Positions 21,996-33,808 of a stretch of 64,000 nucleotides of DNA are shown here, in pieces. Position numbers and translations under genes: made by a program. The stretch lies in IMG/VR virus record IMGVR_UViG_3300028394_000067; one strand, given 5' to 3'. Source of the DNA: an uncultured virus (IMG/VR IMGVR_UViG_3300028394_000067). Its lineage: Duplodnaviria; Heunggongvirae; Uroviricota; Caudoviricetes. How positions within the stretch are numbered: the first letter of the stretch is position 1; the number at the start of each line of letters is the position of its first letter. The notes beneath the pieces are model-generated. The model saw nothing but the letters and a program-made list of their open reading frames with translations. It made no database searches and had not been told where the DNA came from.

Positions 21996-23549
21996 CTACC
22001 TTAAAGATGTTTGAAATAATTCAACAGACTTAGGGTCATCGTTGACATTAACTAAGAAAACTTCATCACTAAATTTATGTAGGACGTTAGCTTTTTGACC
22101 TATACAAAAAGTATTCCATTGAAGGCATGTTTCGTCTTTAAATTCATTTAAACGGCGTACAAGAGGATCTGATATTTCAGACTCACCATCCGTGATTAGT
22201 AGAACGTCGGCTTTGGCATCAATCTGAGCCTTAGTCAGCGCGTGGTTTAATACAGCTGAGAAGGCTGTACCACCTCTTGTAGACCAGGTCATTACAAAGT
22301 TTAAGAGTTTTTCGTTATTGTTTCGATCACTTTTTAAAATTATGCTTTCTTGTATCACTGTATCAAACAGATGAACTTGAAGTTCTCGCTTCTGCTCTAA
22401 ACATTCTTCAGCAACTACATAAGCAATTGCTTTGCTCCATATCTCTGAGCTTCCAGACATTGATCCGCTTACGTCTATGTACATAACAACGGGCCCTTTA
22501 GATATTTCTTTTATCTTTGCTTCGTAGTCTTTAGTTAATAAAGTTTTCTGTGAGTATTTGAGAGCAAACAAAGTCCGTCCTATAATGTCTCCAGCTAGAG
22601 CTAATTCAACAGGGAAGATATTCTTAATATCATCCGAGAACTTAGCCCCCACAATGTCACTGTAATTACTTTGTGCTTGCTTAGCACGTTTCCTATTATT
22701 CCAAGCTTTTCTTAGGGCTCCAATTTTATTAATCAGCTGTTTCAAACGTTTGTTCTGTTTCAGTGTTTGTGCCAAGTGTCTCTTCGTTTCTAAATCGTCA
22801 CTGTGGGAGCCGATTCCTTTGTTAGTACCAGCTAAAGTATCGAGTGCTTCCTTTAACTCCTCTGCTTCTTCGTTTACTTTATCTATTACGTTTGATACAG
22901 CAGGCTGCATTTGAGAGCGCACATCACTAAAAGTTTTCTCCATTTGTTTTCCTAGTTCCTTACCTAGTTGTCTAAATTCAGCCGCTTGTTTTTCGTTGCC
23001 TTCTTGCATAGCTTGCATAAATTTATCCCGCAGTTCTTGTATTTGCTTTCCTCCTTTAATCAGTGCCTGACCAAGTAATTCATTTTCTTCTATTTGTTTT
23101 TCTATAAGTTCGCTTAGTTTGTTTATTATGTTCACTGCATTGTTACCTGCATTGAATTGATTACCGCACGATAAAGCAGCTAAGTTAGGCCACATCGGGG
23201 ATTCGCATACGTCATTGAACAAGCCCACCCAAAAAGCATTCTCAGGTTTATACCCCGCTGGATGCGCTGGGTTGTGACCATCTTGCTTGAGTCGAAAATA
23301 ATCTTCAACTTCATCTAAACTTATTAAAGGAGTAACCGCACCACCGTTGTACAAGAGATCAAATAGTTCCTTACCAAATCGTGATATCTGAGAGATGTTG
23401 TAGTAATCAACTAAGTATCTAACTGTTGGTTGTGCATCACGAACAAAGTCATCCCATAGAAAATCACAAAGCGCTGAGACCGAAATAACAAGAGGCTCGT
23501 TGTTTATGAGTCGAATAAATTGTTGCTCTGTTTTTAAGTTCATTTGCAT
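21996..23549 (-). CDS. von Willebrand factor A domain protein (ViaA-like)
   Basis: MIDAS motif IDVSGSMSG, RGGTAF, LITDGE; adjacent to the MoxR ATPase. Confidence 0.85.
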   Translation of the reverse strand: MQMNLKTEQQFIRLINNEPLVISVSALCDFLWDDFVRDAQPTVRYLVDYYNISQISRFGKELFDLLYNGGAVTPLISLDEVEDYFRLKQDGHNPAHPAGYKPENAFWVGLFNDVCESPMWPNLAALSCGNQFNAGNNAVNIINKLSELIEKQIEENELLGQALIKGGKQIQELRDKFMQAMQEGNEKQAAEFRQLGKELGKQMEKTFSDVRSQMQPAVSNVIDKVNEEAEELKEALDTLAGTNKGIGSHSDDLETKRHLAQTLKQNKRLKQLINKIGALRKAWNNRKRAKQAQSNYSDIVGAKFSDDIKNIFPVELALAGDIIGRTLFALKYSQKTLLTKDYEAKIKEISKGPVVMYIDVSGSMSGSSEIWSKAIAYVVAEECLEQKRELQVHLFDTVIQESIILKSDRNNNEKLLNFVMTWSTRGGTAFSAVLNHALTKAQIDAKADVLLITDGESEISDPLVRRLNEFKDETCLQWNTFCIGQKANVLHKFSDEVFLVNVNDDPKSVELFQTSLR

Positions 23550-24724
23550 AACTCAGAGATTGATTTTGCAATCAATTGTTTGGTCTGGTCTAAAGTTTGG
23601 ATCACCTTAGTGGCTTCCTGTCTCGTGGTCGCTGAGATACGATACTCACTCGATTCCATAATGGATGAAAGTTTCTGATCTAAGACCGACACATCGTTAT
23701 GTGACTTACGTAACTTACTCACGAGTTTATTTAGATCGCTTACAGCCTTACATTCTTGGCCATTAATACTGTGATACTCACTTAATATCCCGCCTAGCGC
23801 TCGCTTTATATCAATAATCATTCTTTCAGCCGTGGGTATTGCTTGTTGTAATACTTCTTTTATAACTCCTATATCGTCCACGTTCTGATATATAATATGA
23901 ACCAATGATTTGTGTAGATGATCAGCATACACTGTATCATCTCCTTGCACAATAGCCCAGCCTTTAATAAACTTAAGTATCTGAACGCGACGCCTGTCGC
24001 TAATAGTTATTCCTCTGGAAGCAAGTAGATCAAAGACCTGTGAGAATTTATCTAAAAACTCATCTGTGACTTTAACTTCACTTAAGGATTCTTGTAGTTC
24101 AATTAAGTCTTCGTAAGTTAGTTCTGATTCAACGTTTGGCCTTTTCTTCAAACCTAAAGCCCATAGATCTAACAATCTACGGGATGCTGGTTTCTTTAAA
24201 GCTTCCACTGTCGGTCTAAATAAAAACCTATCGCAAAACGCTTGAAGCGATTCCTCTTGTGGAAATGAGTTTGTAGCAGCAACGACAGACTGGATTGGCG
24301 TGTGGATTAGTTCTTTACCGTTATTGAACGTGCGTTCGTTTAACACTGTTAACAGTGAGTTAAGCACTGCAGAGCTGCCACGAAACAACTCATCAAGGAA
24401 TGCGATATTTGCACTAGGCAAATATCCTTGTACATCCCTTGTGTACTCGTCTTTCAACAACTTTGATATTGCCACAGGGCCAAACAGTTCTGAAGGATCT
24501 GTTGTGGGCGATAACAAGTAACCAAAGAATCTACTGTTTTTAAATCCGTTTGATACGGCACGAACTAATTCAGACTTGCCTGTCCCTGGTAATCCAAACA
24601 AAAACGTATTTTGTTTTGTGATCACAGAAGCCAAGAGGCCGTCAATAATTTCTTCACGTTCTAAGAATGAATTGTTTAATGAACCGCGAAACTTTTGGAG
24701 GTTCGTGAAAAGTAAGTCGTTCAT
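23540..24724 (-). CDS. MoxR-family AAA+ ATPase (RavA-like)
   Basis: LEREEII, GLPGTGKS, PSELFGP, FLDELFR...LNSLLTVLNERTF, DRFL, SDRR. Confidence 0.9.
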   Translation of the reverse strand: MNDLLFTNLQKFRGSLNNSFLEREEIIDGLLASVITKQNTFLFGLPGTGKSELVRAVSNGFKNSRFFGYLLSPTTDPSELFGPVAISKLLKDEYTRDVQGYLPSANIAFLDELFRGSSAVLNSLLTVLNERTFNNGKELIHTPIQSVVAATNSFPQEESLQAFCDRFLFRPTVEALKKPASRRLLDLWALGLKKRPNVESELTYEDLIELQESLSEVKVTDEFLDKFSQVFDLLASRGITISDRRRVQILKFIKGWAIVQGDDTVYADHLHKSLVHIIYQNVDDIGVIKEVLQQAIPTAERMIIDIKRALGGILSEYHSINGQECKAVSDLNKLVSKLRKSHNDVSVLDQKLSSIMESSEYRISATTRQEATKVIQTLDQTKQLIAKSISELCK

Positions 24725-30461: not shown

Positions 30462-30674
30462 TTAAGAGAACTTCTTATGCAGCATGGCTGCAATTCTGTC
30501 GTTGAAGTGTTTATCAATAGCGTCACTAATTGTGGCGCCTTGATTTACAGCTTCAGCTATACGCTCAGCCTGCCTTAAATAAATACCTAAAGCAAACGGA
30601 TTGTATCCACGTTTTGTGGATTGTTTGATATCCCATTGAGTGAGATAGTGATCAAGTTGGGCGTGAAGATCCAT
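30462..30674 (-). CDS. Hypothetical protein
   Basis: 70-aa ORF with CAAAATCACAC leader. Confidence 0.65.
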   Translation of the reverse strand: MDLHAQLDHYLTQWDIKQSTKRGYNPFALGIYLRQAERIAEAVNQGATISDAIDKHFNDRIAAMLHKKFS

Positions 30675-30697
30675 TGCCTGTGTGATTTTGGTGTGGG

Positions 30698-30952
30698 TTA
30701 GTAATACTTTCTGCGCAAGTCACGGGATTTATCCCATGCAGGATTACATGCATCGGCGCCTACTTTATCTGGGAAGCAGGGCCTTACATCGTCCTTGTAT
30801 ACATAACCGAATCCTTTGTAGTTTCCGGTTTCATGTAATACGTGCTCAAGTGCAGTGATCAACCCATACTTTTCATCGTCTGATAAATCAAGAACAAGTT
30901 TAGAGTTCATGTAGTTTTTGAACTCTGACACTTCGAATGTTTTGCGGGCCAT
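30698..30952 (-). CDS. Hypothetical protein (LE.VLH.TGNY.GF.Y family)
   Basis: 84-aa ORF with CAAAATCACAC leader. Confidence 0.7.
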   Translation of the reverse strand: MARKTFEVSEFKNYMNSKLVLDLSDDEKYGLITALEHVLHETGNYKGFGYVYKDDVRPCFPDKVGADACNPAWDKSRDLRRKYY

Positions 30953-30985
30953 AATTAGTGCTTGGTTGTGTGATTTTGATGTGGT

Positions 30986-31165
30986 TTAGTAGATGTAAAC
31001 AATATCTGTCTGCTTAAAATACACACGTTTGTTATGTGTTAAATGACAAATATCTGCGGTTCGATTAGTTCTTTTGATTGCTAATCCACCACCTTTAGGA
31101 ATAAACTGTTGGCCTACATTAATGGCGGCGAATGTTACTGGTTTGGAATAGATACTGAAGTTCAT
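30986..31165 (-). CDS. Small hypothetical protein (59 aa; not in ORF track)
   Basis: MNFSIYSKPVTFAAINVGQQF...TDIVYIY. Confidence 0.5.
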   Translation of the reverse strand: MNFSIYSKPVTFAAINVGQQFIPKGGGLAIKRTNRTADICHLTHNKRVYFKQTDIVYIY

Positions 31166-31167
31166 TG

Positions 31168-31479
31168 TTAAATCCAGAAGTTGTCTAGTTTGAACTCACC
31201 AATGAAGCTATTTAAGATATTCTCAGCAACTAGTTTGCGCTCTGGTATAGGAAACATTGTATGCCAAGCTTGATTAATCGAGCCGTGGCACACTTTATAA
31301 TCCTTAGCCGCTGGAATAACTAGATTCCGGTATACATAACCTAAAGCGCGTTCATAATCAAAGGAACCCTTGCGCCAGAATTTAGTTAGTGTCCGGCCAA
31401 TACCGTTGAAATGTACATCTGAAAAATTCCCTGCGTAGAGTTCCAACTCCAACGCTAAATCTTGATCAACAACAGTCAT
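31168..31479 (-). CDS. Hypothetical protein, first gene of the early cluster
   Basis: Likely ATG at 31479 (MTVVDQDLALELELYA..N; KG.FD...A; AAKDY). Confidence 0.7.
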   Translation of the reverse strand: MTVVDQDLALELELYAGNFSDVHFNGIGRTLTKFWRKGSFDYERALGYVYRNLVIPAAKDYKVCHGSINQAWHTMFPIPERKLVAENILNSFIGEFKLDNFWI

Positions 31480-31642
31480 GATTAGCACCTGGTTTGTGTG
31501 ATTTTGAGGGAGAGAATCCCTCAGTAAACTTGTTAGTTTAGTGAGAGAATCATCGTGATCATAAATGATCATTAAGCTGAGATTAAGTACCCTACCGAGA
31601 ACACTGCTAAGCAATGTATGGCCCCGGTAGGATACAATCCCG

Positions 31643-31669
31643 AAAAAAAAGCCCTACTTAAAGTAGAGC
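31643..31669 (-). terminator. Rho-independent terminator closing the candidate ncRNA locus
   Basis: Minus strand GCTCTACT-TTA-AGTAGGGC followed by T8. Confidence 0.8.
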
Positions 31670-31706
31670 ATAAAGCGCATGCAGAGCATGGATGTTATTA
31701 AATTGT

Positions 31707-32245
31707 AAAAAAATGCGGGTGGCCAGCGTTCGCTAAGCGCTGAAGTGTACAGATACCCTGCATGTTGACAGGAAAGGACACACCACCCCCGGTGAGAATT
31801 GTGTTTGTATTGAGTTACCGTTCCCACAATCAATCCCTGGACTTCTTACAGGTTACTAACCTGGCTTGCCTGGCGTTGAATCATGGTAATAGATAACGCA
31901 GCTAGACTGTAGAAAGATAACTTTCTGCAGCATTGAACCAAGGGCCTTCCGGGCAAAGACACTAGCTCCAAACCTGCCTTAGTCGATCGCGCAGGATCAA
32001 CCGGTAAGGTGGGAGATTCTAGTGCTGGACTGGGGCTTAGCCTCTCGCGAGGTTATGGGCACACCAATCCTATGGCTACTAGCCTCAGGGGTATCAGTTC
32101 AACAGCCTGTCGAGAAGATCTAGGCGCCATGATCCGTCGTCTCGCACTCTCACCTTTCGGTTACTTTGTGCGACGTCCCGTTCAGGGCCAGATCAACCGA
32201 TGGCTGAGCTTTTATGTAGTGGTGCGGGTGGTTCTCCCCCCGCTT
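31707..32245 (-). ncRNA. Candidate large structured non-coding RNA (~540 nt)
   Basis: Own promoter and downstream terminator; about 10 stems, GNRA tetraloops (ACC-GAAA-GGU, CCUC-GCGA-GAGG), G-U wobbles on the minus strand, long-range stem 32086-32095/31752-31760; no credible ORF. Confidence 0.7.
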
Positions 32246-32251
32246 GAACTA

Positions 32252-32280
32252 AGCCTAACATGGGATCGGCAGCCTGTCGA
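32252..32280 (-). promoter_or_regulatory. Sigma70-type promoter TCGACA-N17-TAGGCT with extended TG
   Basis: -35 at 32275-32280, -10 at 32252-32257. Confidence 0.6.
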
Positions 32281-32371
32281 GAAGGTTGTTGCATAACTTA
32301 ACAATTGGGCGGGAGCTCATAGGCTCGCAAGGCTCAACCGTTAAGCCAGGCACCCTATGACAGGAAGCCGT

Positions 32372-32442
32372 TGGCTAGGCGTGGCCGGTAGGATGCCGCT
32401 GGCTAGGCGTGGCCGGTAGGCTGGCTAGGCGTGGCCGGTAGG
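32372..32442 (+). repeat. Three 21-bp direct repeats (TGGCTAGGCGTGGCCGGTAGG)
   Basis: Copies at 32372-32392, 32400-32420 and 32422-32442. Confidence 0.95.
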
Positions 32443-32462
32443 TTTCCCCGCCGGTTGAACCT

Positions 32463-32492
32463 ATAGTAACCACAGGGGGCGCCAAACGTCAA
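32463..32492 (-). promoter_or_regulatory. Sigma70-type promoter TTGACG-N18-TACTAT
   Basis: -35 at 32487-32492, -10 at 32463-32468; followed by GTTCAA like the neighbouring promoter. Confidence 0.65.
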
Positions 32493-32577
32493 CAGGGCAA
32501 ACCATAAGCGTTGCTTATCAATAGGTGAGCCCTAGGGTAGTTGTTATCAATTATACATTTAGTATAATGTAATTAAT

Positions 32578-32810
32578 TAAACAGCACTGTATAATTATCA
32601 ACAACTAGCGCGGGGGGTGATAGGAAATAAGTATTAAACAGTACTGTATAATTCTTAACACATAGCTAAATGTTATTTGATACTTAGTTATCTATTACTT
32701 ATTACTTAGGTTTAGTTAATACTTAATACATTGTTAGGTGTTACTTAGCATTTAATTAATTAATTTATACCACCCCGCCCTAGTTAATTATAATTAAACA
32801 GTGTTGTTTG
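32578..32810. repeat. AT-rich core flanked by a 45-bp imperfect inverted repeat (origin- or terminus-like)
   Basis: 32578-32622 vs reverse complement of 32766-32810 match 35/45 ungapped; internal direct repeat ATTAAACAG(C/T)ACTGTATAATT at 32576 and 32633. Confidence 0.75.
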
Positions 32811-32974
32811 ATTCTTATTCCTATCATCAGGCAGGAAAGTATAAACAATTCCGCGCCACTATGTATCACAAACCTGCCGCAATGTGTAAAAGCTGCCTTT
32901 TTTTTAATATACAAGCTTATGTGACGACGGTGGCGAGAAGGTTTTTGGTAACAGCGGGGTATTTTGAGGCTAAA

Positions 32975-33466
32975 ATGTGTTCTGCCAACATAGTAACAGC
33001 CGTGTTTAGTCGACTTTACGGCACCCAGTGGCAAGAATTCCCGAGCAGCAGCAGAAAACTACAAATAATTGCGAGTTTTGACCGCGAAGTTAGTCCTATT
33101 GAGCTAGAACAGCTTGCTGACACCGTGGGTTGGTGTCGCAGACCTCGAAATCGTACAAAAAAAGCTTTAAATAATTCGTTATTGGTCCTTGGCCTATGGC
33201 GTCACAACATTTGGGCGCCGCATTTGATTGGATTTGCTCGTTGTACGGGAGACGGTGTACTGAATGCAACTATTTGGGATTTAGTAATTCACCCGTTGTA
33301 TCAGCACAATGGTTTAGGTAAAGGTTTGCTGGACATTTTGACCACGCGGCTAAGACAAATGCAAGTTGAGAACGTAAATCTCTTTGCTGACGCGCAAGCA
33401 GTTGAATTTTATTCTGGTCAGGGATGGGAACTTGAGCCCCAGGGAAAACGCTGTATGGCTATGTAA
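32975..33466 (+). CDS. GNAT acetyltransferase, cyanobacterial Ycf52-like
   Basis: ELEQLADTVGWCRRP, IGFARCTGDGVLNATIWD..IHPLYQ..GLGK, LFAD...FY..QGW. Start uncertain. Confidence 0.8.
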   Translation: MCSANIVTAVFSRLYGTQWQEFPSSSRKLQIIASFDREVSPIELEQLADTVGWCRRPRNRTKKALNNSLLVLGLWRHNIWAPHLIGFARCTGDGVLNATIWDLVIHPLYQHNGLGKGLLDILTTRLRQMQVENVNLFADAQAVEFYSGQGWELEPQGKRCMAM

Positions 33467-33556
33467 AAAAAAATTCAACGCAGGAAAACGAGGGCAAAAC
33501 TTTTTGCTGTAGTAGAATTACTTCAAGTTGTATTGTTAGACGGGCAGTAAAAACAT

Positions 33557-33808
33557 ATGAACCCTTTTGAGTTTTTAAACAATGCCATCGTTAACGTACT
33601 TACTGGTTTGACGGAGCGTTATGGTACACGCTCACCAAACTATGTTCCTCCCAGTAATCCGGTGCCCCAACCGCGACCTACTATGAGGGATATTCCTTTC
33701 GGTCCTTATCAACCGCTAATAAATGAAGCTGAACGAGTTAAGGATGCGCTAAATGAGCAGACTCGTAGGAAACAAGAGATTATTGATAGAGAGCTAGGAA
33801 GATATTAG
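33557..33808 (+). CDS. Hypothetical protein
   Basis: 83-aa ORF with TAGAAT upstream. Confidence 0.6.
   Translation: MNPFEFLNNAIVNVLTGLTERYGTRSPNYVPPSNPVPQPRPTMRDIPFGPYQPLINEAERVKDALNEQTRRKQEIIDRELGRY

Follow-up and report, generated by a model that had tools for sequence, protein, structure and literature searches.

To our knowledge, very few RNAs of bacteria or phages both exceed ~500 nt and adopt conserved multi-junction folds; these are the rRNAs, group II introns, GOLLD, ROOL, OLE and a few more. GOLLD RNAs, many of which exceed 800 nt, are multi-junction molecules carried by phages and prophages and found in aquatic metagenomes, and their function is given as unknown (10.1101/2024.12.08.627333, PMC5737381). 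ROOL RNAs, with a mean length of 581 nt, are likewise ornate, borne by phages and prophages and described as being of unknown function, and are presumed to be GOLLD analogues despite their unrelated sequence (PMC5737381). Both are reported to form RNA-only cages (PMC5737381, 10.1101/2024.12.08.627333). Here we describe an element that invites comparison with these RNAs, in a 64,000-nt stretch of DNA from an uncultured virus of the Caudoviricetes (IMG/VR record IMGVR_UViG_3300028394_000067; hereafter the window), which by its gene content is phage genome sequence. The element is predicted to be a minus-strand RNA of about 814 nt, running from ~32456 to 31643, or ~765 nt in relatives with one copy of a 5' repeat; its boundaries were taken from an alignment of nine sequences, the window and eight homologues. 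We are confident that this block is a real structured RNA gene. To the fuller statement, that it represents a new class akin to GOLLD and ROOL and would act in trans through an invariant core, we give about even chances, arguing from analogy.

The consensus fold of the nine sequences, computed with RNAalifold, contains 186 pairs in 27 helices, and 99.4% of its 1577 cells are standard pairs. Both partners change in 23 of the 186 pairs, as compared with 8.9±1.8 in shuffles (none of 500 reached 23), and in a control in which the 3' partners were slid by 1-3 columns the number of two-sided changes dropped to 0-3. Compensatory pairs are found in every domain, in helices H4, H5 and H7, in H10, H11, H14, H15 and H20, in H22 and in H24-H26. 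These comparisons show a conserved multi-domain fold that compensatory changes have maintained. Folding energies agree: relative to dinucleotide shuffles, the minus strand of 31700-32260 has a z-score of -2.65 (0 of 100 shuffles as good), the full length (31643-32456, minus strand) one of -3.34 and the homologue L132 one of -6.49. An earlier note, made from the letters of the window, had proposed a large structured phage non-coding RNA outside the known classes at this place, and the proposal came through the covariation, shuffle, open reading frame (ORF) and Rfam analyses alike.

The block is GC-rich, as that note had observed (0.578 for 32001-32500, against ~0.37-0.45 around it), and holds no credible ORF. 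The plus-strand frame at 32009..32296 (95 aa), which matches no Pfam family, is not conserved as a protein and is a non-coding chance ORF: it is broken by frameshifts (length changes not divisible by three) or stops in six of the eight homologues, being intact in L132 and cut in L131. On neither strand is any ORF intact in all the homologous sequences. Searches with Rfam 15 found no family at gathering score anywhere in the window, GOLLD, ROOL, introns and ribozymes included, only chance small-RNA and microRNA hits in 31300-32900 at E<=10, and nothing relevant in five homologous loci at E<=1. Group I and II introns, RNase P RNA, transfer-messenger RNA (tmRNA), 6S RNA and self-cleaving ribozymes were thus all without an Rfam model match, and the block does not have the setting of an intron, since it lies between genes and has no flanking exons.

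The extent of the RNA differs from that first proposed, which was ~540 nt (32245-31707) with a promoter at 32252-32280. That promoter would fall inside the RNA: contigs assembled from RNA libraries cross it to 32305 and further, and the conserved promoter lies at 32492-32463. This is a sigma-70-type promoter on the minus strand (32463..32492), with a -35 hexamer TTGACG at 32492-32487, an 18-nt spacer and a -10 hexamer TACTAT at 32468-32463 (9 of 12 matches in the scan). Both hexamers (TTGACG and TAnTAT) are kept in all five homologues that reach this point, and across five sequences the letters of the spacer vary while its length stays constant. Kept hexamers around a variable spacer of fixed length are the signature of a real promoter, which would place the transcription start near 32456. 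Just upstream, a short palindrome on the minus strand, ATAAGC-AAC-GCTTAT (32502..32520), is identical in all five sequences that extend there, although the next ~290 nt vary; it is possibly a protein site or an upstream hairpin.

At the other end, the intrinsic terminator that had been named at 31643-31669 proved to be real. It comprises a stem (31669-31651, minus strand) followed by a U8 tract (31650-31643), and was picked up by the terminator scan; it is present in all seven homologues that reach it, where U-G to C-G and U-A to U-G changes preserve pairing. It is separated from the 3' domain by an A+T-rich stretch. The U7 tract further upstream (31707..31713, minus strand), previously taken as the 3' end, is missing in three of the eight homologues and replaced by AAAAUCUU in these three (L132, L133 and L134).

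The 5' end, in turn, begins with a hairpin capped by a GAAA loop (CCGG...GG-GAAA-CC...CCGG; 32435..32454, minus strand), identified in the alignment, whose stem changes on both sides and stays paired: it reads CCGG/CCGG in the window and L132, CCGA/UCGG in L130 and L134, and GCGA/UCGC in L135. Next comes a tandem triplication (32362..32439, minus strand) of a 22-28-nt unit (CTACCGGCCACGCCTAGCCAGC...), present in three copies in the window and in a single copy in the four other sequences that span 32362-32439. Three contigs (L111, L133 and L136) stop exactly at the 3' edge of this repeat, at window position 32361, which suggests that copy-number variants of the 5' repeat exist in natural populations and break assemblies at that point.

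Within these limits the RNA falls into domains that differ in how they are conserved. The variable 5' domain (32215..32361, minus strand) is a long irregular hairpin, H1-H5, together with H6 and H7. This domain and the promoter are only 62-81% identical to their homologues, and the helices are nonetheless kept, with five two-sided pairs in H4, H5 and H7. The conserved core of 317 nt (31897..32213, minus strand) is closed by H8 and contains the subdomains H9-H11, with a GAAA loop, H12-H19, with a GCGA loop, and H20. Its identity is 94-99% in all eight homologues, and it harbours ten two-sided pairs, in H10, H11, H14, H15 and H20; in L135 it is conserved even though the upstream region has fallen to 71% and the 5' domain to 62%. 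A post-core domain follows (31811..31896, minus strand; H21-H23), in which H22 carries three two-sided pairs in the consensus fold. The 3' domain (31711..31794, minus strand; H24-H26) occurs as two sequence types that form the same helices; it is 97-98% identical in four homologues and 65-74% in three, with five two-sided pairs. To judge from these identities, the core is constrained in sequence and the periphery in shape alone.

The nine sequences show several combinations of 5' and 3' domain types, and the peripheral domains have therefore been exchanged by recombination across the conserved core. A particularly clear case is L132, which compared with the window over 30607-33671 has flanks of 99-100% identity, a 5' domain of 68%, a 3' domain of 74% and a first early gene of 90%, a pattern that reads as local module exchange between otherwise near-identical phages.

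The RNA also contains an exact 15-nt direct repeat (CTTCTCGACAGGCTG), one copy of which lies in the 5' domain (copy A, 32270-32284) and the other in the core (copy B, 32103-32117). Copy B is invariant and supplies the 3' strand of the helix that closes the first core subdomain, and copy A differs from one homologue to another; upstream of the RNA gene, at 32931-32947, there is a weaker third copy. The window as a whole has two exact and three three-mismatch matches to the repeat, five against 1.37 expected, a number reached in 3 of 100 shuffles. A complementarity between the CCUACCGG portion of the repeat and the hairpin beyond the terminator is lost in the homologues, and was taken as chance.

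Many of the individual helices first read from the letters recur in the consensus fold. ACC-GAAA-GGU (32161-32152) and UCGCAC/GUGCGA (32173-32168 / 32147-32142) are consensus helices with two-sided changes, as is the hairpin CCUC-GCGA-GAGG (within 32055-32038); of the GGAUUGG/CCAGUCC stem drawn around this hairpin, the inner four pairs were borne out, again with two-sided changes. Three further elements, GCACUAG/CUAGUGU and the hairpins at 31931-31906 and 31863-31849, also recur, varying little or not at all, and CAGCC/GGCUG recurs without any variation. CCUGC/GCAGG, CCUUGG/CCAGGG and UGAUCU/GGAUCA are replaced in the consensus by other pairings, although all of them are invariant and the choice is not forced. 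The long-range stem of ~340 nt span between GAUACCC(C)UG (GAUACCCCUG) and CAGGGUAUC was rejected, on account of one-sided, uncompensated changes in four of the eight homologues (L111, L132, L133 and L134).

The eight homologues come from freshwater viral and metagenome contigs and share 78-96% identity with the window in this region. Exact-word scans of IMG/VR yielded a single relative, read as L040, L108, L110 and L111: the 15-mer scan returned 107 loci, among which L040 alone was related by blastn and the remaining 106 were chance, and the 25-mer scan returned the same contig and no other. A 20-mer from the invariant core led to seven JGI metagenome contigs (L130-L136). Near-identical words were furthermore present in 20 listed public runs from 17 studies, nearly all freshwater, six of the runs being RNA libraries. 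By contrast, blastn found no match among 50,697 phage GenBank records, and the nearest virus record (G001) is without the region.

The closest cultured phage is Synechococcus phage S-EIV1: its terminase and that of the window share 52.6% identity over 97% of the protein, and the gp88-like proteins share 45.6%; this likeness points to a cyanobacterial host. We searched such relatives with R1, a covariance model of the core (316 positions, 103 pairs, five branch points), which is nearly sequence-specific (effective sequence number 0.67), so that distant structural relatives could escape it. At E<=10, R1 matched none of 18 loci from phages with the gp88-like gene, none of the three type-B loci and neither of two S-EIV1 segments; at E<=1 it found nothing in the complete S-EIV1 genome and nothing in virus records G001-G003, a set outside which the record of L130 falls. 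The RNA is thus patchy among relatives, being absent by this search from S-EIV1 and three related virus records. Representative prokaryote genomes gave 0 matches to a 22-mer, and one 20-mer match in a metagenome-assembled genome of Bacteroidales was dismissed as chance, the best R1 score there being 2.1 bits.

Four metatranscriptome runs from four studies provided contigs that could be compared with 30600-33400. Seventeen pieces aligned, 12 of them within 31803-32305; few lie outside that interval, but diverged strains align only where conservation is high, so that depth cannot rank genes. Two contigs (X15 and X17) continue upstream past 32305 with the letters of the variant 5' domain of L111, and a third (X18) continues at 31820 into the second 3'-domain type; the contigs of those strains therefore exceed both ends of the alignable part. 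Variants among the contigs repeat the compensatory pairs 32152/32161, 32144-45/32170-71 and 32030-33/32064-66. What these contigs establish is the presence of the sequence in RNA libraries, rather than a mapped transcript.

The same contigs bear on the suggestion that the block works at the level of DNA, as single-stranded hairpins or protein-binding palindromes for replication or packaging, and is not an RNA gene. Watson-Crick compensation is strand-symmetric and both strands fold alike, the replication module adjoins, and the tandem repeats at 32362-32439, with three contigs ending at 32361, could be seen in that light. We nevertheless consider a DNA element improbable: the sequence occurs in contigs of four RNA libraries, a conserved promoter and terminator flank exactly the folded part, GNRA-capped hairpins and multi-helix junctions are features of RNA, the tandem repeat is single-copy in four of the five spanning sequences, and no turning point is seen in the cumulative GC skew at this place.

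Taken as an RNA, the element resembles GOLLD (RF01998) in being very large (814 nt here), multi-junction and phage-borne, with conserved and variable parts; it has, however, no match to the GOLLD model even at E<=10, and its conserved part is central with both ends variable, whereas in GOLLD the conserved region lies on the 3' side and the variable one on the 5' side. With ROOL (RF03087) it shares the character of a large ornate phage RNA, and the two unrelated structured blocks found in one genomic slot (see below) are a further parallel. The ROOL model does not match either, and ROOL occurs widely, across three phyla, whereas this RNA is known from one narrow phage lineage. On these tests the element belongs to neither family, and we regard it as a further class of the same general kind. 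A catalogue of structured RNAs from IMG/VR, built by comparative genomics from at least three IMG/VR regions per candidate and including freshwater viruses, describes phage intergenic candidates of 29-151 nt (PMC10690425). These are far shorter, and our word scans of IMG/VR gave this RNA one relative there, although a fragment of it might be in the supplementary lists of the catalogue. A literature search, in part of titles and abstracts, found no description of this RNA.

On the reading that we favour, host RNA polymerase would transcribe the RNA as an independent unit when infection begins, and the product would be a stable folded RNA with a role in trans, as is presumed of GOLLD and ROOL. 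Its working surface would be the invariant core, which would either bind some component of the host or the phage or assemble with itself by way of its GNRA loops, and the variable hairpin domains would serve as a scaffold. Expression early in infection is suggested here by the position of the gene and its host-type promoter.

Several points weigh against this interpretation. The family is narrow (nine sequences, 78-96% alike), several of the compensatory pairs travel together as block variants and so amount to fewer than 23 independent events, and the consensus structure was derived from the same sequences in which the pairs were counted, which introduces a degree of circularity. Strand, ends and level cannot be read from the RNA-library contigs, and libraries of this kind may contain DNA. 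For the role in trans we argue by analogy and not from a result. GOLLD and ROOL often lie near tRNA genes, of which there are none near this RNA (ARAGORN, 64 kb). A simple scan detected no sigma-70-like minus-strand promoter between the terminator and the first early gene, which would fit a leader role too. Finally, the consensus fold of the opposite strand is nearly as good, at -149.3 as compared with -151.1 kcal/mol, with 164 as compared with 186 pairs and 21 as compared with 23 compensatory pairs; in the 110 pairs common to the folds of both strands, minority G-U cells outnumber A-C cells by only 10 to 6, so that the earlier note's use of mismatches (G-U on the minus strand, A-C on the plus strand) as a sign of the strand is not decisive.

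The fold of the plus strand could accordingly be read as the functional one, its single-sequence z-score for 31700-32260 being -1.66. Set against this, the minus-strand fold has more pairs, a higher proportion of paired cells (99.4% vs 98.2%) and the better z-score (-2.65). Scans revealed no promoter-like site leading into the block from 31400-31700 on the plus strand and no terminator near 32500, and the sole terminator-like hairpin, at 31678-31690, lies on the entry side of the block; on the minus strand both signals are present and conserved. A functional plus strand is therefore, in our estimate, very improbable. We prefer the minus strand, not on the structure alone, but because it alone has a conserved and well-placed promoter and terminator, and because it is co-directional with the downstream genes.

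These downstream genes belong to one of two divergent blocks, which are separated by the ORF-free region of ~1.4 kb in which the RNA sits. The minus-strand block, from ~31.6 kb down to 9 kb, encodes small genes, the gp88-like protein, a MarR-like regulator, a MoxR-VWA pair, a family-A DNA polymerase, an exonuclease and a D5-type primase; the early and replication genes downstream of the RNA span ~22 kb. The plus-strand block includes a methyltransferase, glycosyltransferases and the large terminase. ARAGORN reported 0 tRNA or tmRNA genes in the 64 kb.

This setting raises the question of whether the RNA might be a structured pre-primer comparable to ColE1 RNA II, which would fold, pair with the DNA at a place close to its 3' end and, once cut, serve as primer for the family-A DNA polymerase. 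It does head a replication module with polymerase, primase and exonuclease, it has its own constitutive-looking promoter, and an A+T-rich stretch precedes the terminator. But origin features were not found, the RNA ends at a strong conserved terminator, and the phage encodes its own primase. Moreover, the 3' domain that would have to form the hybrid is the swappable part, and the invariant core lies far upstream. A primer seems hardly probable to us.

Between the terminator and the first early gene lies a structured spacer (31480..31642, minus strand) with a hairpin of ~24 bp, a GATCA-TTTA-TGATC palindrome that occurs only once in the window, a third hairpin and an AGGUG ribosome site. It is 99-100% identical in all six homologues compared, as against 87-98% for the next gene, and has a fold z-score of -5.08. 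Possible roles are those of a processing site, an operator or a structured 5' UTR (untranslated region).

A different block takes the place of the RNA in three related phage loci (L109, L112 and L141). The upstream element and the GATCA box are found there as in the window, and so is the first early gene, with a product 65% identical to that of the window. The slot itself (1837-3003 in L109, 2543-3600 in L112 and ~974-2080 in L141) is filled by a block of ~1.0-1.1 kb that is free of ORFs, unlike our RNA in sequence and without a match to R1 or Rfam. This block folds very strongly, with z-scores of -7.4 (gene strand) and -5.8 (opposite strand), and its consensus has 343 pairs, nine of them two-sided, which with three sequences is thin evidence. 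A simple scan detected no clear promoter or terminator around it. S-EIV1 carries neither this RNA nor the second block. In more distant phages, ORF-free gaps upstream of the gp88-like gene gave z-scores of -0.76 (L114), -2.33 (L118) and -5.38 (L122), their positional equivalence being uncertain.

The order of these parts is what gives the main rival explanation its force, namely that the RNA is the cis-acting leader of the ~22-kb early operon, transcribed from the promoter at 32492-32463. It might then govern its own terminator, by attenuation or by processive antitermination of the put type, or message processing or stability, with the hairpin beyond the terminator as a cleavage site. HK022 put (~70 nt) and the lambda PR'-tR' 6S transcript are cis-acting antiterminator or leader RNAs of ~70-200 nt, and the locus resembles theirs in having a promoter-proximal RNA followed by a terminator ahead of a long operon. 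Promoter, RNA, strong terminator, the spacer of 99-100% identity and the first early gene follow one another on one strand; the scan mentioned above leaves the gene without a sigma-70-like promoter of its own beyond the terminator; and in related phages a different structured block occupies the same place, as if the position itself mattered.

On the other hand, the known cis-acting RNAs are short and have no covarying multi-domain fold, and a fold of ~770 nt far exceeds the needs of known cis antiterminators and attenuators. Inspection by eye of 31643-31800, without a systematic search, revealed no pairing that would compete with the terminator stem, no antiterminator protein was identified, and an early operon of the same type exists in S-EIV1, which lacks this RNA. 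A weaker promoter candidate, TTAATC-17-TATGAT, was noticed in the spacer, by eye only; the GATCA-TTTA-TGATC palindrome overlaps its TATGAT box and, partly on the same inspection by eye, could be the operator of a promoter belonging to the early genes themselves. On balance we consider a leader unlikely, yet the alternative to be taken most seriously, and continue to favour a self-contained RNA gene acting in trans.

Phage morons are self-contained inserts of promoter, gene and terminator, as recognised by Hendrix and colleagues, and the classical ones encode proteins. The present element is similar in that a sigma-70-type promoter and an intrinsic terminator of its own are predicted from the sequence, in its GC content (0.58 vs ~0.40) and in being patchy or replaced in relatives; it differs in that it would yield a large RNA alone. 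Because of its own promoter and terminator, foreign composition, patchy presence and replacement by another structured block, it may be regarded as a self-contained accessory cassette, an RNA 'moron'. A bolder version would have it as a class of giant ornate RNA with a catalytic or self-assembling core, in a slot of interchangeable, analogous RNA 'morons' whose domain swaps and repeat expansion reflect an arms race with the host; this we put forward tentatively, as a speculation that we would not expect to hold in full. If it were true, the slot would be a cassette system of functionally analogous RNAs in cyanobacterial viruses, comparable to GOLLD and ROOL. In any case, a giant RNA backed by covariation in what are probably viruses of freshwater picocyanobacteria extends the range of hosts and settings in which such RNAs occur, and its located promoter, core and terminator provide a defined construct for work on structure and function. 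Each known giant RNA has repaid study, GOLLD and ROOL for instance by proving to build RNA-only cages; here, the conserved core amid swappable domains and the unrelated block of the sister phages suggest that giant RNAs serve more generally as accessories in early infection.

Some further features of the region were noted in passing. Upstream of the promoter, a box, ATTAAACAGYACTGTATAAT, occurs three times (32564-32600, 32621-32657 and 32781-32817), each time with a palindrome ACAGYACTGT that directly overlaps a plus-strand TATAAT; these boxes look like operator-controlled promoters of the divergent plus-strand genes. A non-coding element of ~150 nt (32857-33007 in the window, 1689-1836 in L109 and 2376-2542 in L112) is ~70% identical between type-A and type-B phages and overlaps the 5' part of the long plus-strand ORF 32801-33466. 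As the GNAT domain encoded by this ORF begins only at residue ~124, the true start of the GNAT gene is probably near 33035 and not at 32801. Lastly, within the early and replication block, a gene for a MoxR-type AAA+ ATPase (bpMoxR, 4.3e-57) adjoins that for a VWA-domain protein (21996-24724, minus strand).

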